A stretch of 64,000 nucleotides of DNA from an uncultured Holophagae bacterium (GTDB lineage: Bacteria; Acidobacteriota; Thermoanaerobaculia; Thermoanaerobaculales; Sulfomarinibacteraceae): NCBI GenBank assembly GCA_963797055.1, contig CAWCOD010000005.1, positions 7,947 to 71,946 on the forward strand, given 5' to 3'. The position numbers and the translations under genes are program-made. Under the pieces are notes generated by a model that was not told the DNA's origin, made no database searches, and worked only from the letters and a program-made list of their open reading frames with translations. Positions 1 through 63,126 of this stretch are shown here, piece after piece (positions within the stretch are counted from its first letter, which is position 1; every line of letters starts with the position of its first letter).

Positions 1-39
1 GTTTAACGTGTAACGTTCAACTATTAACTCCCCACCCGC
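1..39. repeat. Heptamer tandem array (GTNTAAC x4) plus C-rich box TCCCCACCCGC
   Basis: Read directly: gtttaac gtgtaac gttcaac tattaac tccccacccgc. The same unit type recurs at 25076-25103 and 33792-33820. Confidence 0.7.
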
Positions 40-6343: not shown

Positions 6344-7048
6344 ATGATGGTAGAAACACCTCCAAGTTTCATCGTAGTTGGGGCCATGAAGTCCGGCACC
6401 ACTTCATTGTACAAGTGGTTATCTGGACATTCAGGTTGTTGTTTTTGTCGACTCAAAGAACCCCACTTCTTCTCCATAAATTGGGATCGTGGAATCGATT
6501 GGTATCGTGGACTATTTTCAGAATGCCCAAATCAACAAATTTCAGGCGAGGCGTCGCAAAGCTACACCGACCCTAGCTGGTGCGATGAGGCGGCAGACAG
6601 AATTTCTCAGGTGGTTCCGGATACAAAAATCATGTATATCCTCAGAAATCCCATAGCGCGATCACGGTCCCAGTACCGCCATGAGGTGAGAGCGTCTCGC
6701 GAGCGGCGGGAGTATTTGACAGCGATTGCGGACGGGTCGAGCGGATACCTGCAAAGAAGTATGTACTGGTCCTGCCTGAATCCGTTTGTTGAGAGATTCG
6801 ATAGAAGTCGTCGTCGGATCCTGGTTCTTAGGTTTGAAGACCTGGTATCGGATTCGGATGAAACGTGGGTTGAGCTTTTGAATTTCCTCGGTCTTCCGGT
6901 GGAAAGACGTTGTCATCATGTGCACCGTCGAACCGAGACAGTGCCTGGGAGGGGAAAAATTTTGCCACGCCTGAACGCGTTGGGTTCGAAGAAAATCACC
7001 AGATATGTGCCCAATTCCATCAAGGATCTGATCCCACCGTGTTCCTAG
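6344..7048 (+). CDS. Sulfotransferase family protein
   Basis: PAPS-binding motifs VVGAMKSGTTSLYKWL (5'-PSB) and ILRNPIARSRSQY (3'-PB). GGAG RBS. AT-richer than the flanking DNA. Confidence 0.85.
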   Translation: MMVETPPSFIVVGAMKSGTTSLYKWLSGHSGCCFCRLKEPHFFSINWDRGIDWYRGLFSECPNQQISGEASQSYTDPSWCDEAADRISQVVPDTKIMYILRNPIARSRSQYRHEVRASRERREYLTAIADGSSGYLQRSMYWSCLNPFVERFDRSRRRILVLRFEDLVSDSDETWVELLNFLGLPVERRCHHVHRRTETVPGRGKILPRLNALGSKKITRYVPNSIKDLIPPCS

Positions 7049-7497: not shown

Positions 7498-8669
7498 ATG
7501 AATATTTTGCACTGTATCGATACGATGGCGAGTGGCGGAGCGGAAATACAGATGGCAAGAAATGTCTCAAATATTGAAGGAAAAAATTTCAGAAATATTG
7601 TATGTATTTTCCACGGTCCAGAAACCGAAGCGGCAATTCTAAAGAGAACAGTATTCCTGTCATTAATCTCGATTTAACTGAAAATATATTAGGAGCTTGG
7701 TCGGGATGTCTTGAAGTCCGAAGAGTCATCAAGGACAAGAAGATTGACCTAGTCCATACCGACGGTTTTTGGGGAAATCTCGTGGGGAGGTTTTCTGCAA
7801 AGACCTTGAGAGTCCCGGTGGTGTCCACCTGTGGGAATACGGTGAGTCTGAAAGATCGATTTCGTGCAAGTCCGAGTGTCCTTCGATGGAAGCTGAGGCT
7901 GGTGTGGTTGTACTCCGCCTTCACGGCAAGACATTTTGTCGACCGCCATGTTGCGATTTCAGAAGCGGTCAAGGAGTCGCTGGTCCATCACTGGAGGGTC
8001 GCGGAGGATCGGATTGAGGTCGTCTACCGTGGAGTGTCCTTGTACGAAATTCCCCGCGAAAATGGGTCGTCGAGAGAGGTGGACGATCTCGGTCAGTTTG
8101 GGTTTGAGGGCGGATCTCCTTTCTTGGTGACGGTGGGGAGGCTGGTGCCGCAGAAGGGACATGACCGGTTACTTGATGCGATGGGGATCTTGGCGAGGCA
8201 TTACCCCGAATTTCGACTGTTGATTATCGGCGAAGGGAGGGAACGCCTCTCTCTTGAAAAGAAGTACGAGAATCTAGGCTTAGGAGACAACGTCTCCCTG
8301 GTAGGCCATCGTGAGGACGTAGGACGGTTTTTGGTCGAAGCTGACGTCTTCGTGTTTTCGTCTTACTACGAAGGATTCGGCACAGCTGTGGTAGAGGCGA
8401 TGGCGGCGGGCCTGCCAGTGGTGGCCTTTCCTAATGGCCCGGCGGAGGAAATCGTGGTTGACGGAGAGACCGGAATTCTCGTCGAAGATGGAACTCCGGC
8501 AGCCATGGCAGAAGCGATCTCGAAAATCATCGGGGATCCGGAGCTAGGGAAACAGATGGGTTGCAAAGGGGAAAGACGAGCGTCCTTGATGTTCGACTCG
8601 AATTCCGTCGCTGACCAGATGGCAAGGGTCTTCGTGTCGGTCCTAGGGAAAAGGGGGAGGGCGGCGTGA
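7498..8669 (+). pseudogene. Glycosyltransferase family 4, frameshifted near 7650
   Basis: Frame 1 from 7498 gives MNILHCIDTMASGGAEIQMARNV..., a GT4 N-terminus of 59 codons that is below the ORF-track cut-off. ORF 7602..8669 (frame 3) carries the rest, including YYEGFGTAVVEAMAAGLPVVAF and ETGILVE. Confidence 0.8.
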
Positions 8670-24609: not shown

Positions 24610-24640
24610 AATTCGCAATTCGCAATTCGCAATTCGCAAT
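24610..24640. repeat. Heptamer tandem array (AATTCGC x4.5)
   Basis: aattcgc aattcgc aattcgc aattcgc aat read directly, 9 nt after the stop at 24601. Confidence 0.9.
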
Positions 24641-25075: not shown

Positions 25076-25103
25076 GTTACACGTTACACGTTTAACTTTC
25101 AAC
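25076..25103. repeat. Heptamer tandem array (GTTACAC type, 4 units)
   Basis: gttacac gttacac gtttaac tttcaac. It abuts and overlaps the stop codon of the ABC exporter at 25099. Confidence 0.75.
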
Positions 25104-30974: not shown

Positions 30975-31050
30975 CATTGCGAATATTCGAAATTCGGAAT
31001 TCGACCCTACCCAACCCCCTCTATTCACTATTCACTATTGACTATTTGCT
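30975..31050. repeat. Composite repeat: heptamer array (ATTCGAA type), C-box, heptamer array (TATTCAC type)
   Basis: cattgcgaatattcgaaattcggaattcga / ccctacccaaccccctc / tattcac tattcac tattgac tatttgc. Confidence 0.85.
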
Positions 31051-33583: not shown

Positions 33584-33820
33584 CGAATTCCGGATTGCAG
33601 ATTTCATATTGCAGATTGCATATCCCCCCGCCCACCTGGGAAGGTTGCGCTGATCGGGCGTGACAACCTTGACGACGTTGTAGCCAGGTCGAATTTTGAA
33701 TTCTCAATTTTTAATGTTGATTTCCTCCCTCTCCCAACCAGAGGACCGGGGGGACGGGTGGGAATTCAAAATTTAGAATTCTCGATCCAGCGTTCAACGT
33801 GTAACGTTGAACGTCAAAAC
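33584..33820. repeat. Dense composite intergenic repeat region (several heptamer arrays, C/G boxes, GATCGGGCGTG box)
   Basis: gattgca gatttca tattgca gattgca / ccccccgcccacctggg / ctgatcgggcgtg / gaattttgaattctcaattt / ctccctctcccaacc...ccggggggacgggtggg / aattcaaaatttagaattc / gttcaacgtgtaacgttgaac. Confidence 0.85.
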
Positions 33821-35100: not shown

Positions 35101-35147
35101 GTCGAATTGCAGATTGCGGATTGCAGATTGGGTGGGGTGGAGGGGGG
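35101..35147. repeat. Heptamer array (TGCAGAT type) plus G-box
   Basis: gtcgaat tgcagat tgcggat tgcagat tgg / gtggggtggagggggg. It lies between convergent genes. Confidence 0.85.
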
Positions 35148-38413: not shown

Positions 38414-38515
38414 CCCGCCACCCGACAATTTGCGAATTACGAATTACGAATTGCAGATTGCAGATTACAAATTACAAATTACAGATTGCAGATTGCGGAT
38501 TCCCCCGCCCACCCG
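38414..38515. repeat. Longest heptamer array (11 units, GAATTAC/AGATTGC) flanked by two direct C-boxes
   Basis: cccgccacccg / aatttgc gaattac gaattac gaattgc agattgc agattac aaattac aaattac agattgc agattgc ggattc / ccccgcccacccgg. Confidence 0.9.
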
Positions 38516-38685
38516 GATCGTGAAAGGTCGCGATGGGCGGGCGCGCCACTTCTGACACTCTCGGGTTGATCGCGTCGAGGGTCTCCAAACTGTTGAGTCC
38601 CGAAAGTGTCAGGGGTGGCAACCACGGGGAGCGCCTCAGGGAGATGGCCGCGGCGAAGTCAGCAGATCGAATCGAACACATGGGC

Positions 38686-38756
38686 CGGTGCCAGGCACCG
38701 TCGAAATTGGAACGGTAGAAGGAGATCGACACATCTGCGGCGGTGCCTGGCACCGA
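38686..38756 (+). repeat. Palindrome-terminated ~70-nt element, copy 1 of 3
   Basis: cggtgccaggcaccgtcgaaat...(about 26 nt)...tctgcggcggtgcctggcaccgacatg. The termini GGTGCCAGGCACC and GGTGCCTGGCACC are reverse complements of each other. Confidence 0.85.
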
Positions 38757-38885
38757 CATGTGGGGAGCGCCCCGGAGGTGGGCGCGATGGGTGACGGAAT
38801 TCGATCATTGGCCGCAGTGCCTTCGTCGCTACCCGGTTCTCATCGCACGTCCCGTCCCACAAAGGCGTTCCGGGCGGGCGGGGGT

Positions 38886-38917
38886 CCTCATAGCCCCATA
38901 GCCCCATAGCCCCATAG
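38886..38917. repeat. Octamer tandem repeat (CCCCATAG x4)
   Basis: cctcatag ccccatag ccccatag ccccatag read directly. Confidence 0.9.
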
Positions 38918-38936
38918 CGACGAAGGGAGGGGAAAA

Positions 38937-41894: not shown

Positions 41895-41971
41895 GCCCTC
41901 CACACCTTCCACATTTCCACACCGGGTGGGTGGGGGTATTCGAATTTCGAATTTCCAATCTCGAATTTTCC
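41895..41971. repeat. C/G box pair plus heptamer array (ATTTCGA type)
   Basis: ccctccacaccttccacatttccacaccgggtgggtggggg / tattcga atttcga atttcca atctcga attttcc. Confidence 0.85.
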
Positions 41972-45886: not shown

Positions 45887-45943
45887 GACTTCAGAGTATA
45901 CCTGACATGGCTTATTTGATGAAAAACAGTGGAGGAACCGAGC

Positions 45944-46053
45944 TTGAATTCTCAATTTTCAATTGTGAATTCTCAATGACCGCATCGGTAGGCATCCGGT
46001 CCACCCGGGCGGGTGGAGGAATTCAAAATTCAAAATTCAAAATTAAGAATTCT
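45944..46053. repeat. Long imperfect palindrome: heptamer array, palindromic box CCACCCGGGCGGGTGG, inverted heptamer array
   Basis: cttgaattctcaattttcaattgtgaattctcaat ... ccacccgggcgggtgg ... ggaattcaaaattcaaaattcaaaattaagaattc. Confidence 0.9.
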
Positions 46054-46077
46054 GATTGTGACCGTCCAGCTCTCCAC

Positions 46078-47049
46078 TCACGAATCGATGGGGTGCCAGC
46101 AGCGGACATGTCGTTCGTTGTGAATCGAGATGAGAGCCGGTTCCTCACGGCAGGCGGGGGAGGCGCCGCGGCAGCTTGAGGCGTATCGACAGGCACCCTC
46201 TGGCCAGTTCTCGTGGTGTGGCGACTGGAGGGAGGGTGGGCGCCAGCTGGGATCGAGGAGGGGAGTCGCGGCCACCAGGGCCCGGGTGTACGGGTGGGCC
46301 GGCCGGTCGAGAATCTGTGTGACAGGTCCCTGCTCGACGATCGCACCCTGGAGAAGAACGGCCACACGGTCGCAGATTTCACCCACCACCCTCAGATCGT
46401 GCGAGACGAAGACCATGGTCAACCCGTAACGGTGTCGTAGTTCGCTCAACAGCCTCAGAATCTGACAACGGATCGACACGTCGAGGAAAGACACCGGCTC
46501 GTCGAGGATCAGAAGATCGGGCTCGAGCGCCACCGCACGGGCAATGGCGATGCGCTGCCGTTCGCCCCCCGAGAATGCGCTCGGGAACCGTCCGGAGGCG
46601 TCCTCCGGCAAACCCACGAGGGCCAGGAGCTCGGCCACGCGGATGCGCCGTTGTGCGGCCGTGCCGTTGCCAAAGGCCACCAGCGGTTCGGACACGATGG
46701 TGCCCACCGTCAGCCGAGGATCGAGGGACGCCAGCGGGTCTTGGAATACCGCCTGAAATCGCCTTCTCAGCGGACGTACCCGGCGCGGCGTCATGGTCGA
46801 GATGGGCCGGCCGTCAAAATACACGGATCCGGCATCGGGTTTCTCCAGAGCCAGCATGAGTCTCGCCAGTGTCGACTTGCCGGCACCGGAGGATCCGACG
46901 ATGCCGAAGGCCTCTCCGGCCCGAACCCGGAGGTCGATGTGGTCCACGGCACGGATCATCTGATTCGACCCGCCCGGTGTCGGGTAGTCGCGGCAGAGCC
47001 CCACGGTTTCGAGCAGCGCTTCAGACATGTGTGGTCCCACATTCCCCAC
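46078..47049 (-). CDS. Oligopeptide/dipeptide-type ABC transporter ATP-binding protein (OppF/DppF-like)
   Basis: Walker A GIVGSSGAGKSTLARL, signature FSGGERQRIAIARA and Walker B LLILDEPVSFLD. Conserved C-terminal HPYTRAL region. Confidence 0.9.
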   Translation of the reverse strand: MGNVGPHMSEALLETVGLCRDYPTPGGSNQMIRAVDHIDLRVRAGEAFGIVGSSGAGKSTLARLMLALEKPDAGSVYFDGRPISTMTPRRVRPLRRRFQAVFQDPLASLDPRLTVGTIVSEPLVAFGNGTAAQRRIRVAELLALVGLPEDASGRFPSAFSGGERQRIAIARAVALEPDLLILDEPVSFLDVSIRCQILRLLSELRHRYGLTMVFVSHDLRVVGEICDRVAVLLQGAIVEQGPVTQILDRPAHPYTRALVAATPLLDPSWRPPSLQSPHHENWPEGACRYASSCRGASPACREEPALISIHNERHVRCWHPIDS

Positions 47050-48040
47050 AGGCAGCCATGCCGCGCACCGTAACCGGACAGCGCACCGCGCGATAATCGT
47101 CCACCAGGGCCAACGACGGCTGGTGAGTCAGACACGGGGGTTCGGCGATCGGGCACCGAGCGGCGAATCGGCACCCCCGGGACGCATCGGCCTGACCCTG
47201 GCTCGGTTGCGATTGCCGCTGGTGGCCACCCTTGTTGACGGCGTCGAGGAGCTGCCGTGTGTAGGGGTGGAGCGGTTGACCGAAGAGCTCTCCAGTCGGG
47301 GCATGCTCGATGATCTGCCCTGCATACATGACGGCAACCCGATCCACCAATCCGGAAACCACCGCCAGATCGTGGCTGATCAGCAGCAACGCCATGTCAT
47401 CACCGGTCAGTTTGCGAAGCAGTTCGAGGATCTGCGCCTGCGTCAAAACGTCGAGGGCCGTGGTCGGCTCGTCCGCAATCAGCAAGCGGGGAGCACCGGC
47501 CAGGGCCAGTGCAATCATCACCCGCTGAAGCTGGCCCCCGGAGAGTTGGTGCGGATATCGAGCGCCGATATGGCCCGCGTCCTCGAGGGCCACGGCGTCG
47601 AGGAGCCGTTGGGTCTCGATCCGAGCCTGTCGGCGGTTGAGTCGACGATGGGACGCTGCCGTCTCGGCGATCTGAAAACCCACCGTGAGTACGGGGTTGA
47701 GGGCTGCTGATGCCTCCTGGAAGACAAGCCCGATGGTTCCACCACGGATCTCCCGCAGGCGATCCTCGTCGGCGTCGGCCAGATCGAGGCCGTCCACCGT
47801 GATGCGCCCAGACCGGATCCTGCCCGACCCGGAGACCAGGCCCAGGGTGGCCAGGGCAAGAACGCTTTTTCCGCTGCCCGATTCGCCCACCAGGGCCATC
47901 CGTTCCGACGTCGCCACATCCAGCGAGAGGTCATCGACGACACGCCGCCAGCCGCCGTTCGGAGTCGGGAAGTCCACCGCCAGATCGCGGATTGAAAGAA
48001 TCGGCTCAGGGTGCATGACGGAAATGTCCGAGTCGGACAT
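47021..48040 (-). CDS. Oligopeptide/dipeptide-type ABC transporter ATP-binding protein (OppD/DppD-like)
   Basis: From [20 protein letters not shown]. Walker [15 protein letters not shown], signature [15 protein letters not shown] and Walker [13 protein letters not shown], plus HPYTRQLL. The upstream part of ORF 47021..48256 is discarded. Confidence 0.9.
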
Positions 48041-49199
48041 GCTCGTCCGGGTACACCAGGCCGAGGGGCGAGACTGCCGGCGGTCTTTGCCAACAATGAG
48101 CAACAATATCGGCCCGGTCGAGGCGGCCGTTGCCGTCGTCCTCCACCAGTACGGTGAAGTGGCTCCCGTCCACCAGGAGGTCGCCAGCCAGAACGTCATC
48201 ACCCCATCGCAGGGGTCTGTTGCTCCCCATGGCGTCGCCAAAGGACAGGGTGACATCGCCCAGAGGTTGCAGGCTCGAGTCCGGGATGACCGAACGGCCC
48301 GAAACAGCGACCGCGGCGAAACTGCGGGACGAGGTCAGGAGGCGCCGGTCCACCGCCTCGCTGAAGGTGCTGCCGAACGCGATCTCTGCGATCTCGTCCT
48401 GGAGACGTGGGTCATCCGGATCGGTTTCCCAACCGGGGAGGTTGAAGAGCTCTCCCAGCGTCGCGTCGAGGGGGGCGGGTACCGATGCCGCGATCAAGAT
48501 CGCAGGGTAGTCGGGATCGAGGATGCGGTCGGCCCCACGGGATGACATGGTCTGTACGGCCTGGACGTTGCTGCGATCCGGCTGGAGCACATCCACCTTG
48601 ACATAGAGGCGAAGAGTCCCAATGTCAACCCAGAGTTGGTCGGGCTGTGGCCCCAGACCGTCGTCGTGATGAACCTCCGGCGGCGAGACGGCGCTCAGGC
48701 CCTGGCCCATTTCCGGCGCCAGAAACGGTCGGTATCGAAGTCGTTTGGCCGCATTGTCAGGTGCGACGAGGCCACCGATGTTGGTGCTCTCCACGGTAAA
48801 CCAGAAGGCTCTCACCGTGCGGTCGTTCTCGGGCCACTCCTCCGACCTGAGGTGATCCACGATCCGGCCGTCGATTTCCAGCCGTTCGACCGGCGCCAGC
48901 CACTGCCGCCGCCCACCGGGGTATTGGAGTTCGAGGGCCGCCGCCACCCGCACGGGATCGGTGGGCCCCGACCTCCGCGGGCCGGTGCGAAACACCGGGT
49001 CCGAATCGCTGGCGGTGACGATGCGTACGTTCACCAGCACGGGTCTTCGCACGTCGCGAACCTTCCAGTAGATCAACGGCGCCGCGACCAGCGCGACCAG
49101 TGCGGCGAGGATCAGAATGATGAGCTTGTTCTCGGAAGCCACGGATCGATTGTAACGGTGCCGGATCGATGAAAGGAGTGAAATGCGGTCACAGCTCAT
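48006..49199 (-). CDS. Hypothetical membrane-anchored protein
   Basis: N-terminal anchor NKLIILILAALVALVAAPLIYW followed by a ~370-aa domain with no motif I recognise. The start is ATG 49199 or GTG 49140. The rest of ORF 48006..49877 is antisense to the GT gene and is discarded. Confidence 0.5.
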   Translation of the reverse strand: MSCDRISLLSSIRHRYNRSVASENKLIILILAALVALVAAPLIYWKVRDVRRPVLVNVRIVTASDSDPVFRTGPRRSGPTDPVRVAAALELQYPGGRRQWLAPVERLEIDGRIVDHLRSEEWPENDRTVRAFWFTVESTNIGGLVAPDNAAKRLRYRPFLAPEMGQGLSAVSPPEVHHDDGLGPQPDQLWVDIGTLRLYVKVDVLQPDRSNVQAVQTMSSRGADRILDPDYPAILIAASVPAPLDATLGELFNLPGWETDPDDPRLQDEIAEIAFGSTFSEAVDRRLLTSSRSFAAVAVSGRSVIPDSSLQPLGDVTLSFGDAMGSNRPLRWGDDVLAGDLLVDGSHFTVLVEDDGNGRLDRADIVAHCWQRPPAVSPLGLVYPDEHVRLGHFRHAP

Positions 49200-49261
49200 C
49201 CGGAGCGAGGGGGCGTGTTGATCGGGCGTGCCGTCTGAGAGCTCATCCCGGAAGCGCGGGC

Positions 49262-49330
49262 CGGTGCCAGGCACCGTCGAAATCGTAATGGAGCACGAGA
49301 TAGCGGCATTTGCGGCGGTGCCTGGCACCG
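49262..49330 (+). repeat. Palindrome-terminated ~70-nt element, copy 2 of 3
   Basis: cggtgccaggcaccgtcgaaatcgtaatggagcacgagatagcggcatttgcggcggtgcctggcaccgccatg. It is preceded by gatcgggcgtgcc at 49221 and ends 22 nt before ATG 49353. Confidence 0.9.
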
Positions 49331-49352
49331 CCATGTAGAATCGACCACTACG

Positions 49353-50549
49353 ATGGAAGCTCCCCTGAATATTCTGATCGTCGCGACCAAACCACCGTGG
49401 CCGCCGGTGGATGGCGGCAGGGTAGTCATGCTCCAGACCATCGACGCGTTGGCGGCAGCCGGTCACCGCGTGACGGTGGTGAGCCCATCCGATCCCGGCG
49501 TCGACGACGACGAGGTGCGACGACAGTTGTCTGACAGGTGCCGGTCTGTACTCGTCCCTGACCGGCCCCGCAGCGTGTGGCGTGTACTCGCGACCTCCAT
49601 ACTCGGTCGTCGTCCGGTGACCGTGGTCCGGCACGAGCTCGAGGGGGTCCGACGTCGGGTGACCGGGTTGGTGGCCGAGGAGCGCTTCGATGTGGTGCAG
49701 GCCGAGCAGGTGCAGGCCATACCTCAGGCCCAACCGGCAATCGCGCGCCGTATCCCGCTGGTCTTCCGGGCCCACAACGTGGAGAGCGCGTTGTGGACCT
49801 TCGCTGCGGCATTCGGACGTCCGCTGACGGCGGGTCTCCTCCGACGGGAGGCCAGGCGTCTCACGTTGTGGGAGCAAAAGGCGGTCCAGCAGGCTGCGGC
49901 GACGGTGGTGTTGACCGACGTCGATCTGGCTCCCTTACGACGGACTGCGGGCAACGGGCCGTTGATCGAGAAGGTCCCGGTGCCCTATCCCGAGGATCTG
50001 TCAGCCGGAGAGATGCCGCTGGAGGGTCATCCGGCGGTTGTCACCCTGGCGAGCCAGACGTGGCTTCCAAGCAGAGAGACGGCTCGACAGGTGGCCGAAG
50101 TTTGGTGGCCGGTGGTTCGCGAGCGTTTGCCCGACGCCGTCCTCCACGTCTTCGGTGGCGGCCCCGAGAGTGATGAGTGCAACGGCGTGCGCCTCCACCC
50201 ACCACCGGAGGAGAGTGTTCAAGCATTCGCCGCCGGTGCGATTGTGGCGATCCCGACCCGCCACCCCACGGGTGTGCCGGTGAAGGGGCTGGAAGCCTGG
50301 TCGAGAGGTCTGCCGCTGGTGGTGTCCTCAGAGACGGCGCGCGCCCTGGAGGGTGCTGACGGGGTCGATCTGTTGGTGGCCGACGGTCCCGAAGCGTTCG
50401 CGGCGAAGCTGGCGGAGCTGGCCGATGACGCCGAGCTGTGGGGTCGCCTGGTGGCTGGTGGCAGAAGACGGCTGCTCTCGCACCATGATCCGAAACTCAT
50501 CGCAGAGCAGCTCACCGAACTTTATAGGCGAGTGAGGTCTCGGTCTTGA
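49353..50549 (+). CDS. Glycosyltransferase family 4/1 (GT-B)
   Basis: LNILIVATKPPWPPVDGGRVVMLQTIDALAAAGHRVTVVSP. GT-B C-terminal half ...AIPTRHPTGVPVKGLEAWSRGLPLVVSS. Confidence 0.8.
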   Translation: MEAPLNILIVATKPPWPPVDGGRVVMLQTIDALAAAGHRVTVVSPSDPGVDDDEVRRQLSDRCRSVLVPDRPRSVWRVLATSILGRRPVTVVRHELEGVRRRVTGLVAEERFDVVQAEQVQAIPQAQPAIARRIPLVFRAHNVESALWTFAAAFGRPLTAGLLRREARRLTLWEQKAVQQAAATVVLTDVDLAPLRRTAGNGPLIEKVPVPYPEDLSAGEMPLEGHPAVVTLASQTWLPSRETARQVAEVWWPVVRERLPDAVLHVFGGGPESDECNGVRLHPPPEESVQAFAAGAIVAIPTRHPTGVPVKGLEAWSRGLPLVVSSETARALEGADGVDLLVADGPEAFAAKLAELADDAELWGRLVAGGRRRLLSHHDPKLIAEQLTELYRRVRSRS

Positions 50550-50582
50550 ATTTTGAATTTTGATTTCCGCCCCCCACCCGGT
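50545..50582. repeat. Heptamer array (TTGAATT type) plus C-box
   Basis: cttgaat tttgaat tttgatt tcc / gccccccacccgg. It overlaps the GT stop codon (50547-50549). Confidence 0.85.
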
Positions 50583-50632
50583 GCGCGCGATGATCGGGCG
50601 TGCCTTTCGAGCGGGTTCCGAACGCGCTCACC

Positions 50633-50705
50633 CGGTGCCAGGCACCGTCGAAATCGCAGCGAAGCACGAGATCGGTTCATTTGCGGCGGTGCCTGGCACC
50701 GACAT
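50633..50705 (+). repeat. Palindrome-terminated ~70-nt element, copy 3 of 3
   Basis: cggtgccaggcaccgtcgaaatcgcagcgaagcacgagatcggttcatttgcggcggtgcctggcaccgacatg. It is preceded by gatcgggcgtgcc at 50591. Confidence 0.9.
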
Positions 50706-50712
50706 GGAGGAT

Positions 50713-51654
50713 TCAGAGTTCCAGGTCCTTCAGGGCGGCGAGGCCCGCTTCGAACGCACGGGTGTCCCTTTCCCACGTGGCCGGGCGGAGCGAGCCGAGA
50801 AAGGTGCCGTAGAGCCTTCGACCGAACAGCCGGAGCCTCGCACCGGAGGCGAGCGCCGACATCGCTTTGCGGGCGGCTTCCGGTCCCCCGCGCCAGCCGG
50901 CGAACCGCACCAGATCGGCCCACATGAACTCCGGATGATATGGGGCGGCGGAGCCGGCGGTGGCGGTGATGGTGGCCCCGTGATGGTGGATCACCTCGAA
51001 CGAAGGGATGACCTCCACGTGCCAACCCGCTTCCCGGGCTGCGGCGCAGAGGTGGAGGTCCTGACAATAGAATCGATAGTCCTCGTCCAGCGGGCCGACG
51101 GCCTGCCAGACCTCGCGGCGGACCGCCATGGCGGCGCCCGACACCCAGTCCACCTCCGATCCGGCGGCTCGCCCCGGGGGTTTGATCATCCGATATCCGG
51201 GGATTTTGCCGAGCAGCGCGGGCAGGCCGGAGGCAGTTGCAAAAAGCCACACGGGTGTGGGTTCCCGTCCGGCGCTCCACTGCGGAGAACCGTCCGGATA
51301 GCGGAGTTGGGCGCCGGCCACGCCGAGTCGGGGCTCGCGGGCAAACGCGGCCCGGACAGCGGCCACAGCTCGCGAGGAGACCTCGGTGTCGCTGTTGAGG
51401 AGCAGCAGGACCTCGCCCGTGGCCTCGGCCAGACCGCGGTTGCTGGTCCGCGAGAATCCTGATCGCCTCGGATTGACCAGCACCCGGACCTGGGGAAACC
51501 GCTGGGCGATGGCCTCAGCGGTCTGGTCGGTAGACGCGTCGTCGACCACGATGACCTCGAGGTCGGTGGCCGAGCGGAGCACCGAACCGAGGCAACGCAG
51601 CGTCATATCGCGTGTTGAGTGGGTGGGAATCACGATGGAGAGAGGCATCGACAT
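50713..51654 (-). CDS. Glycosyltransferase family 2
   Basis: LSIVIPTHSTRDMTLRCLGSV...LEVIVVDDASTDQT...RSGFSRTSNRGLAEATGEVLLLLNSDTEV. Confidence 0.9.
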   Translation of the reverse strand: MSMPLSIVIPTHSTRDMTLRCLGSVLRSATDLEVIVVDDASTDQTAEAIAQRFPQVRVLVNPRRSGFSRTSNRGLAEATGEVLLLLNSDTEVSSRAVAAVRAAFAREPRLGVAGAQLRYPDGSPQWSAGREPTPVWLFATASGLPALLGKIPGYRMIKPPGRAAGSEVDWVSGAAMAVRREVWQAVGPLDEDYRFYCQDLHLCAAAREAGWHVEVIPSFEVIHHHGATITATAGSAAPYHPEFMWADLVRFAGWRGGPEAARKAMSALASGARLRLFGRRLYGTFLGSLRPATWERDTRAFEAGLAALKDLEL

Positions 51655-51686: not shown

Positions 51687-51724
51687 ATTCGAATTTCGAA
51701 TTTCGAATTTCGAATTTTGAATTC
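51687..51724. repeat. Heptamer tandem array (ATTTCGA x5) followed by a C-rich/G-rich box region to about 51810
   Basis: gattcga atttcga atttcga atttcga attttga attc, then ccccacctccacaccc...ccctccacaccgggaggttgggaggggg. It is preceded by ggggctcggga, as at 54338. Confidence 0.9.
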
Positions 51725-54352: not shown

Positions 54353-54411
54353 TCGTAATTTGTAATTTGTAATTTGAAATTTGTAATCCGTAATGGCCGG
54401 GTCGGGTGGGG
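54353..54411. repeat. Heptamer array (TGTAATT, 6 units) plus G-box
   Basis: cgtaatt tgtaatt tgtaatt tgaaatt tgtaatc cgtaatg / gccgggtcgggtggggg. Confidence 0.9.
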
Positions 54412-57193: not shown

Positions 57194-57233
57194 CATTTTC
57201 GAATTTCGAATTTCGAATTTCGCATTCGGTGAA
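57194..57233. repeat. Heptamer tandem array (AATTTCG x4-5)
   Basis: cattttcg aatttcg aatttcg aatttcg cattcgg. It lies in a divergent intergenic region. Confidence 0.9.
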
Positions 57234-63088: not shown

Positions 63089-63126
63089 TCAGTAAATAGT
63101 GAATAGTGAATAGTGAATAGTGGATA
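63089..63126. repeat. Heptamer tandem array (ATAGTGA x4-5)
   Basis: tcagtaa atagtga atagtga atagtga atagtgg ataacc. Same unit class as 45125-45159 and, inverted, 31022-31050. Confidence 0.9.

Follow-up and report, generated by a model that had tools for sequence, protein, structure and literature searches.

The 64,000-nt window analysed here (positions 7,947 to 71,946 of contig CAWCOD010000005.1, assembly GCA_963797055.1 of an uncultured Holophagae bacterium of the family Sulfomarinibacteraceae) carries three copies of a hairpin-forming repeat, two of which stand on either side of a GT4-family glycosyltransferase gene (GT4). The copies belong to a high-copy intergenic repeat family of a marine-sediment, Holophagae-like acidobacterium. 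Each copy is probably a REPIN-like doublet, that is, a pair of inverted palindromes resembling the repetitive extragenic palindromes (REPs), and the family is probably non-autonomous and of the kind that goes with RAYT (REP-associated tyrosine transposase) or TIRYT (terminal inverted repeats associated with tyrosine transposases) genes and is moved by a Y1 transposase. Judging from sequence comparison, the 13-nt palindrome (13-mer) from which the hairpin is built appears to be a hairpin or end motif that goes with an IS200-like Y1/HUH transposase clade, closest to TnpA_Y1 subclass 2.1. Y1 enzymes such as TnpA of IS200/IS605 and the Escherichia coli RAYT bind hairpins in single-stranded DNA and cleave beside them. 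By analogy, a Y1 enzyme supplied in trans would bind the hairpin on single-stranded DNA in this lineage and would copy or move the unit into intergenic DNA, preferably beside gene 3' ends. The inserted unit would then become part of mosaics like the bacterial interspersed mosaic elements (BIMEs) and, in transcripts shared with neighbouring genes, would fold into a very stable stem.

Structure and copy number of the hairpin family

A scan of the window for GGTGCCWGGCACC with up to one mismatch gave six matches, two per copy, all on the + strand and all exact. The number expected was 0.11 and none of 100 shuffles reached six matches; with up to two mismatches the extra matches were at chance level only. 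The arms within each copy are exact reverse complements and each 13-mer is itself palindromic around a central A or T. Two inverted 13-nt palindromes (GGTGCC-W-GGCACC, locally CGGTGCCWGGCACCG) placed 54 nt apart form a hairpin unit of 67 nt. The predicted RNA fold of the + strand showed a stem of 18-19 bp in every copy, with free energies from -44 to -48 kcal/mol and z scores from -4.8 to -5.9. The - strand folds worse because a U-G pair (GUCG/CGGC) turns into C-A. An earlier note on this DNA, made from the letters alone, had described the three copies, their reverse-complementary and individually palindromic 13-mers and a possible long RNA hairpin, all of which were confirmed at the positions given there, the hairpin with z ≤ -4.8 throughout. 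The sequence that it saw upstream of copies 2 and 3, GATCGGGCGTGCC, proved real and is part of a longer module common to both. Unlike in the note, the repeated unit reaches about 60-250 nt upstream of the hairpin and has (G/A)CATG as its 3' edge.

Metagenomes were scanned for the family with the exact pattern GGTGCCAGGCACCGTCGAA. The hairpin unit was found on at least 120 metagenome contigs, beside unrelated genes, and with the same fixed length in several loci of Holophagae and Thermoanaerobaculia metagenome-assembled genomes (MAGs); it is not specific to GT4. Contigs of four metagenomes, from marine sediment and soil, were aligned with the locus. Bins within the element had a depth of 400-730× compared to 3-6× in the unique flanks, and contigs ended at the element. 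This approximately 100-fold excess therefore corresponds to roughly a hundred copies per genome equivalent. Of 73 distinct copies, 70 measured 67 nt from arm to arm, among them members of subfamilies whose centres differ strongly. The family consensus was GGTGCCAGGCACC-GTCGAAATCGaATCGgAGcACGAGgTCGa.ACATCTGCGGC-GGTGCCTGGCACC followed by GACATG, after which similarity ends; the unit was flanked 5' by GGGCC / CACCC and 3' by GTCG / GACATG.

Alignment of 44 copies with RNAalifold supported the outer stem alone. The pair at the stem foot was U-G in 38 copies and U-A in the other 6, and the next flanking pair beyond the foot covaried between subfamilies (C-G or G-C). No supported pairs and no covariation were found within the 41-nt centre. 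The unit is non-coding because its variation has no 3-nt periodicity; a small-protein reading on the - strand (ATG..VPGT..VPGT) was rejected on the same evidence.

Association of the 13-mer with Y1 transposases in other bacteria

A scan of 185,579 genomes, one per species, showed paired 13-mers at no fewer than 101 loci in about 30 lineages, compared to an expectation of about 0.01 in random sequence, which is the one yardstick for the enrichment of this 13-mer across phyla. The lineages listed included Bacillaceae, Clostridia, Alpha-, Beta- and Gammaproteobacteria, Desulfovibrio, Bdellovibrio-like bacteria, Planctomycetota, Actinomycetota and Acidobacteriota. The centre of the 13-mer was A or T in 273 of 275 sites, and its flanks were lineage-specific and often prolonged the palindrome. 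In other taxa the 13-mer stood singly, in tandem arrays at varied spacings or in frame within genes. A Planctomycetota MAG (L053, 521-1100) had tandem alternating units of about 124 nt per pair, with nine 13-mers and with TTTGCTAGCAA palindromes. A gammaproteobacterial MAG (L018, CAVOGM010000008.1) had 13 copies in 8 kb, with one cluster per gene junction; units of two or three 13-mers (512-543 and 821-873) lay in frame in a SrkA/YihE-like kinase ORF, where they read VPGT and ..EEVPGTEAVPGT..; none of the reading frames of the 13-mer contains a stop codon. Such in-frame palindromic repeats, seen in that MAG and not in the window, are reminiscent of the Rickettsia palindromic elements, which differ in being 100-150 bp long, genus-specific and without a link to Y1 transposases.

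No neighbouring gene was common to the 101 listed genome loci, and a Lachnospiraceae locus (L057) with two units 5 kb apart had ordinary genes only. A phage or plasmid origin was discarded, as IMG/VR gave 0 and 1 matches for the motif and BLAST with the window unit gave none in plasmid or phage collections. A sigma-54 promoter reading, for which the CTGGCAC contained in the 13-mer was considered, was also discarded: no TTGC stands at the right distance and the motif is present in Actinomycetota, which are not known to have sigma-54. A literature search with the 13-mer and its 11-mer core gave unrelated eukaryotic primers only.

In Metabacillus arenae (L070), a 184-aa gene lies between clusters of the 13-mer, one of which encodes its C-terminus (..EKVPGTKL). 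Homologues found by tblastn were likewise bracketed in L028 (an actinobacterial MAG), L100 (Allosphingosinicella) and L154 (a soil contig). All four proteins passed Pfam Y1_Tnp and scored 67-92 bits with NCBIfam REP_Tyr_transpos (cut-off 80); they have the HUH (NH[LVF]H) and Y[IV]xLNP motifs and fit TnpA_Y1 subclass 2.1 (Table 1 of PMC6006769). The M. arenae contig has a second, frameshifted RAYT-like gene (6526-7010) that is 51-60% identical to the intact one. Among further homologues, one from Gaiellaceae (L229) is flanked on both sides by the 11-nt core GTGCCWGGCAC. The flanking repeat is GGTGTCWGACACC / GTGTCWGACAC for L231 and L233 and GGGGTCAGACCCC on an R. rubrum plasmid, and L226, L230 and Sporomusa L237 have GGGGTCAGG.. 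terminal inverted repeats. The 13-mer or its core was thus seen right beside transposase genes of Bacillota, Actinomycetota, Alphaproteobacteria and Gaiellaceae.

Relatives of the transposase carry compensated cores (GGTGTCWGACACC, GGGGTCWGACCCC), and GGGGTCWGACCCC is the published TIRYT motif GGGGWSAS (PMC3733652). The end motifs formed a graded series with compensating changes, GGGGTCAG(ACCCC), GGTGTCAG(ACACC) and GGTGCCAG(GCACC), of which GGTGCCAG differs from the GGGGWSAS consensus at positions 3 and 5 and is compensated at positions 11 and 9. Since the first eight bases match the TIRYT motif and positions 3/11 and 5/9 change together, the window arms were read as a compensated, self-complementary end motif of this transposase clade.

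The 13-bp palindromes, with their fixed centre-to-centre distance of 54 bp, might also be double-stranded sites of a dimeric or nucleoid protein that loops DNA. Perfect 6-1-6 palindromes with only A or T in the centre suit such paired operators, as does a spacing that is invariant across subfamilies with differing centres, and a homodimer would likewise impose symmetric half-site changes in related cores. This explanation is nevertheless quite improbable. Elsewhere the 13-mer is found singly, in arrays of many spacings and in frame inside genes, and it brackets genes of the Y1 transposases, a family known to bind single-stranded hairpins; no candidate regulator was linked to it among the listed loci.

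Compared to the REP/REPIN-RAYT systems (E. coli REP-BIME, Pseudomonas fluorescens REPINs), the hairpin family showed the same inversion of short palindromes in pairs to give a longer hairpin, about 100 or more extragenic copies per genome, most of them close to the 3' ends of genes, an occasional copy in frame within a gene, and a Y1/HUH gene bracketed by units (a REPtron), the last seen for the 13-mer in other taxa only. The palindromes are short (13-15 nt), all three window copies are intergenic, and the inverted doublet forms one long hairpin. The window unit differs in being a perfect 13-nt palindrome with a 1-nt centre, whereas REPs are imperfect stem-loops of 20-40 nt; its core crosses phyla, whereas classic REPs are species-specific; and the linked transposases resemble subclass 2.1 (TIRYT), not the REP-associated subclasses 2.2, 2.4, 2.5 and 2.7.

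With the TIRtrons and TIRYT repeats (Di Nocera et al. 2013, PMC3733652) the family shares a Y1 clade with NH[VLF]H and Y[IV]xLNP motifs, some members of which have helix-turn-helix or DnaA_C tails, and an end motif related to GGGGWSAS via the GGTGCCAG / GGTGTCAG / GGGGTCAG series. Some TIRYT repeat families are also self-complementary and occur in REP-like dimers and clusters. The window motif differs by its altered and compensated positions, and the window family by a copy number far above the 'moderately abundant' TIRYT families and by units that lie within multi-module mosaics.

Orthologous sites and the gene between two copies

GT4 orthologues were syntenic in all relatives examined (ABC ATPases - 378-aa gene - GT4 - GT2 - ABC-2 transporter), with amino acid identities to the window protein of 78% (L224), 75% (L223) and 80% (L225). 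At the copy 2 site, upstream of GT4, L224 has a hairpin in the identical position with 2 differences in the 41-nt centre, while L223 and L225 have none. At the copy 3 site, downstream of GT4, L223 and L225 again have none and L224 has the type B module (Table 1), a single 13-mer and GACATGG, a 54-nt difference that falls exactly between the two 13-mers. The stop of the ABC-ATPase gene (L224 1-336, window 45940-46080) is a third site at which these close relatives differ by an insertion: the window has 7-nt tandem repeats (heptamers) only and L224 has a full mosaic with a hairpin, 1 nt from the stop. This site was compared in the window and L224, the L225 contig stopping short of it. Heptamers and the C-rich motif that follows them are present at 'empty' orthologous sites and therefore belong to the resident gene 3' tails, not to the inserted unit.

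No target-site duplication was found in the comparisons of filled with empty sites. The earlier note had offered a MITE-like (miniature inverted-repeat transposable element) mobile unit as one option, and of its options this one comes nearest to the observations, which are of a dispersed high-copy family with site-variable presence. MITEs such as Correia/NEMIS and RUP are similarly small, non-coding, dispersed, ended by inverted repeats and polymorphic in presence. The window family differs in its 5' boundary, which is modular and not a matching terminal repeat, and in the lack of a recognisable target-site duplication; neither a related DDE insertion sequence nor a common transposase ORF was found near the copies, and the REP/REPIN-TIRYT kind fits better.

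Copies 2 and 3 are 86% identical, have the same orientation and lie 1371 bp apart with one gene between them. Such direct repeats could serve as recombination sites that let the glycosyltransferase gene be excised or acquired, with glycan variation as the outcome, and the change from hairpin to single 13-mer in L224 indicates that 13-mers can recombine or slip locally. Of all explanations considered, this is the least credible. GT4 is kept in unchanged synteny in L223 and L225, which have no repeats. Copies 2 and 3 differ at 8 of the 41 centre positions, which is the family median, and the copies most similar to copy 3 lie at other loci. No deletion or circle joints between the two copies were found in the four metagenomes, in which contigs can hide rare forms, and no recombinase gene was found near them among the Pfam matches of the window (25 of 67 families listed). 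GT4 is a resident gene and not cargo of the repeats, and its bracketing is coincidental because copies 2 and 3 are independent insertions. The gain or loss of GT4 that the earlier note had considered thus found no support in the comparison of relatives or in the metagenome contigs, and the gene is not a mobile or switchable cassette.

Copy 2 lies 17-23 nt ahead of the GT4 start codon, where a Shine-Dalgarno sequence could not be seen, and is conserved in L224, which would suit a riboswitch-like leader controlling GT4 specifically, as offered in the earlier note. That reading has been largely refuted and is very improbable, and the operator pair for GT4 that the note proposed beside it found no support as a GT4-specific device: the hairpin unit stands beside many unrelated genes on their 5' and 3' sides, copy 3 is downstream of GT4, no Rfam family was matched at E ≤ 10 beyond generic hairpin models, the loop does not covary, and GT4 orthologues exist without a hairpin. 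The hairpins are not a GT4 riboswitch. Copy 2 with the whole spacer is approximately 94% identical between the window and L224 compared to approximately 79% for the flanking coding DNA. This conservation is the sole hint of a local role, by which copy 2, apparently old and unusually conserved, may have been co-opted into the GT4 leader and might affect GT4 expression.

In 56 of 78 cases the gene at the GACATG end of the unit had its 3' end toward the element, and the distance was often 7-70 nt; the other side showed no preference; these counts are approximate because the home-made codon-usage gene caller that produced them mis-called GT4 itself even after it was retrained on called genes (its first version favoured an antisense ORF over GT4). 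The placement agreed with three cases checked by hand, namely copy 3, L224:264-336 and the - strand neighbour of copy 1, and REPs are typically downstream of genes (PMC3733652). No RNA runs containing the copy 2 locus were found. Metatranscriptome contigs from sediment and salt marsh contained a consensus-like copy, and some of them continue past the hairpin into unique flanking sequence. With no strand information and possible DNA content, the contigs are weak evidence that at least some family copies are transcribed.

The family could also be kept by the host as an RNA element, the hairpin protecting mRNA 3' ends, blocking 5' ends or serving as a processing site. The very stable stems, the U-G pair favouring the + strand in 38 of 44 copies, the placement near gene 3' ends, the presence in metatranscriptome contigs and the conservation of copy 2 with its intergenic region in L224 all speak for such a role. 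It is still an unlikely explanation of the family: the units have no U-tract and no terminator-like site, a transcript of the usually abutting convergent gene would carry the less well paired strand, the orthologous genes of L223 and L225 manage without the hairpin, and the 41-nt centre does not covary. A host RNA role also leaves the link to RAYT genes unexplained.

Several observations weigh against the preferred reading, in which a Y1 transposase moves the family. Searches of the 64-kb window and of about 1.3 Mb of further loci, including all family and Holophagae loci, brought no Y1 transposase gene to light. The one Thermoanaerobaculia transposase relative that was examined has GGGGTCAGG ends, unlike the window arms, and the relatives looked up in Thermoanaerobaculia and Acidobacteriota had other ends or none. 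The canonical 5' GT[AG]G (or CGTC) tag at the stem foot, as defined in PMC3733652 and PMC6006769, is absent from the units, which were therefore not assigned to the GTAG or CGTC REPs. The motif is missing from the REP tables of Quentin et al. (PMC6006769), who also found subclass 2.1 to be without REPs. A host function such as protein binding or an RNA role would suit the strict 67-nt length and the 94% conservation of copy 2 as well, and the symmetric core changes also fit a dimeric double-strand binder. The random-sequence yardstick, the approximate placement count and the weak transcription evidence given above count on the same side.

The hairpin family probably belongs to the already known REPIN-like RAYT/TIRYT kind of repeat, and the cross-phylum link of the 13-mer to transposases is the most interesting by-product of the analysis. 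It is a tentative idea, with chances somewhat below even, that GGNGYC-W-GRCNCC hairpins (GGTGCCWGGCACC and variants) make up a third pan-bacterial REP superfamily beside the GTAG and CGTC REPs, co-evolving with and mobilised by TIRYT/subclass 2.1 enzymes. If so, its members could number in the hundreds per genome, combine into mosaics or tandem arrays and enter genes in frame (read as VPGT). The analysis ties one exact 13-nt palindrome, present from Bacillota to Acidobacteriota, to a clade of IS200-like tyrosine transposases that has been described as REP-less, and the 13-mer offers a concrete substrate for probing the very common subclass 2.1/TIRYT enzymes. For this little-studied acidobacterial lineage, intergenic regions built of ordered repeat modules bear on gene calling and expression studies, and the repeats matter for assembly because contigs break at them.

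Gene setting and mosaic modules

As a whole, the window is a region of polysaccharide synthesis. The hairpin copies, the modules beside them and the neighbouring genes are given in Table 1.

Table 1. Hairpin copies, repeat modules and neighbouring genes in the 64,000-nt window.
Feature	Position	Strand	Details
7-nt array (ATTACAA/ATTGCAG) and C-rich CCCCGCCCACCCGG (38503-38516), left of copy 1	38435..38516	+	TRF, motif search
Type A module, from C-rich motif to copy 1	38517..38685	+	Alignments; 24 family copies
Hairpin copy 1	38686..38760	+	13-mer A-arm 38687-38699, 42-nt centre, 13-mer T-arm 38742-38754, tail GACATG to 38760
378-aa gene, divergent from GT4	48006..49142	-	Called orthologues in L223 and L224; codon scores
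Type B module of copy 2 (CCGGAGCGAG..GATCGGGCGTGCCGTCTGAGAGC..GCGCGGGCC)	49200..49261	+	Alignment to other copies
Hairpin copy 2	49262..49335	+	13-mers 49263-49275 and 49317-49329; tail GCCATG to 49335
GT4-family glycosyltransferase gene	49353..50549	+	Pfam; orthologues in conserved synteny
Left part of copy 3: heptamers, C-rich motif 50568-50581, type B module	50546..50632	+	TRF, motif search
Hairpin copy 3	50633..50706	+	13-mers 50634-50646 and 50688-50700; tail GACATG to 50706
GT2-family glycosyltransferase gene	50713..51654	-	Pfam, synteny; convergent with GT4; 3' end toward the GACATG end of copy 3

The start of the 378-aa gene was placed at about 49142 by orthology, and copy 2 therefore lies within a 210-nt divergent spacer, directly ahead of a conserved TAGAATCGACC leader and 17 nt from the GT4 start codon when its GCCATG tail is included. 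Copy 3 sits between the stops of the convergent GT4 (+) and GT2 (-) genes, its end 6 nt from the GT2 stop (50713-50715). Copy 1 has an amidase-like ORF on one side and a - strand gene on the other. No transposase family was present among the 25 listed of the 67 Pfam families matched in the window. No promoter-like or terminator-like sites were found in 49050-50800, and the GC-rich stem with U-tract of an intrinsic terminator is lacking, as the tails read GACATG.. or CTCTCTGG... A search of the window with Rfam 15 brought only tRNA to the gathering score and only generic miRNA-hairpin models at E ≤ 10. An exact-product look-up of the window GT4 gave no recorded match.

A 623-aa ORF (48006-49877, - strand) is an over-extension of the 378-aa gene and runs antisense to the first 525 nt of GT4. 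In GT4, GC1 is close to GC3, so that the antisense frame looks coding and may mislead gene callers. In addition, the spacer between GT4 and the 378-aa gene has a 12-codon ORF (ATG at 49183, TGA at 49219-49221) preceded by AAGGAG at 49173-49178. It is retained in L224 with two synonymous changes and one non-synonymous change, and could be a leader peptide or chance.

The modules around the hairpin are arranged, from upstream to downstream, as 7-nt tandem repeats, the C-rich motif CCCCGCCCACCCGG, a GGGCG(GGCG)TGCC module, the hairpin and GACATG. Five modules were distinguished: tandem 7-nt repeats whose unit changes by locus (module 1), CCCC(G)CCCACCCGG (module 2), AGCGAG..GGGCGCGAT(GATC) (module 3), GGGCG(GGCG)TGCCGTCCTCGAGCGCATTGCGAACGCGCGGGCC or ..GCGCTCACCC (module 4) and the hairpin (module 5). 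About 40 family copies showed the order heptamers, C-rich motif, hairpin. In 24 copies, window copy 1 among them, a further module of about 150 nt precedes the hairpin, and successive hairpins can be joined through it. The arrangement is BIME-like: the intergenic BIMEs of enterobacteria are likewise ordered combinations, in which further short conserved modules accompany a palindromic unit. They differ in that their modules are unrelated in sequence to those found here and in that the window mosaic opens with locus-specific 7-nt repeats and a C-rich motif.

The type A module of copy 1 (about 170 nt) contains GGGCGGGCGCGCC, an irregular stem CTGACACT..AGTGTCAG, and GGTGGCAACC.CGGGGAG..GGGAGATGG..GAAGTCAG; at least 24 metagenome copies contain it, either ahead of a hairpin or between two, and it had no Rfam match. 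For copy 2, similarity to other copies begins at about 49200, and metagenome contigs have loose ends before that position. The left part of copy 3 starts with TTGAATT repeated 2.6 times from the GT4 stop and has GATCGGGCGTGCC at 50592-50604.

Short 7-nt tandem arrays, at least 22 in the window, occur in nearly every intergenic region with a locus-specific unit (8-nt at 38889-38918). Examples are found at 1438-1483, 24610-24640, 31021-31046, 33593-33623, 35106-35130, 38435-38501, 41939-41968, 46020-46052, 50546-50563, 51688-51723, 54355-54387, 57197-57226 and 63091-63126. The arrays often begin directly after a stop codon and are often followed by CCCCGCCCACCCGG (33626, 38503, 38870-, 41922-, 50568). 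The relatives L223-L225 showed the same heptamer-array architecture with other units, and the window arrays resemble the cyanobacterial STRR heptamers and the TAACTGA repeats of Beggiatoa (PMC4679880). Finally, a 21-nt near-palindrome, GTT(T/C)AACGTGTAACGTT(C/G)AAC, occurs three times in the window (1-21, 25083-25103 and 33792-33812) and is related to AAACGTT heptamer arrays of other family loci.

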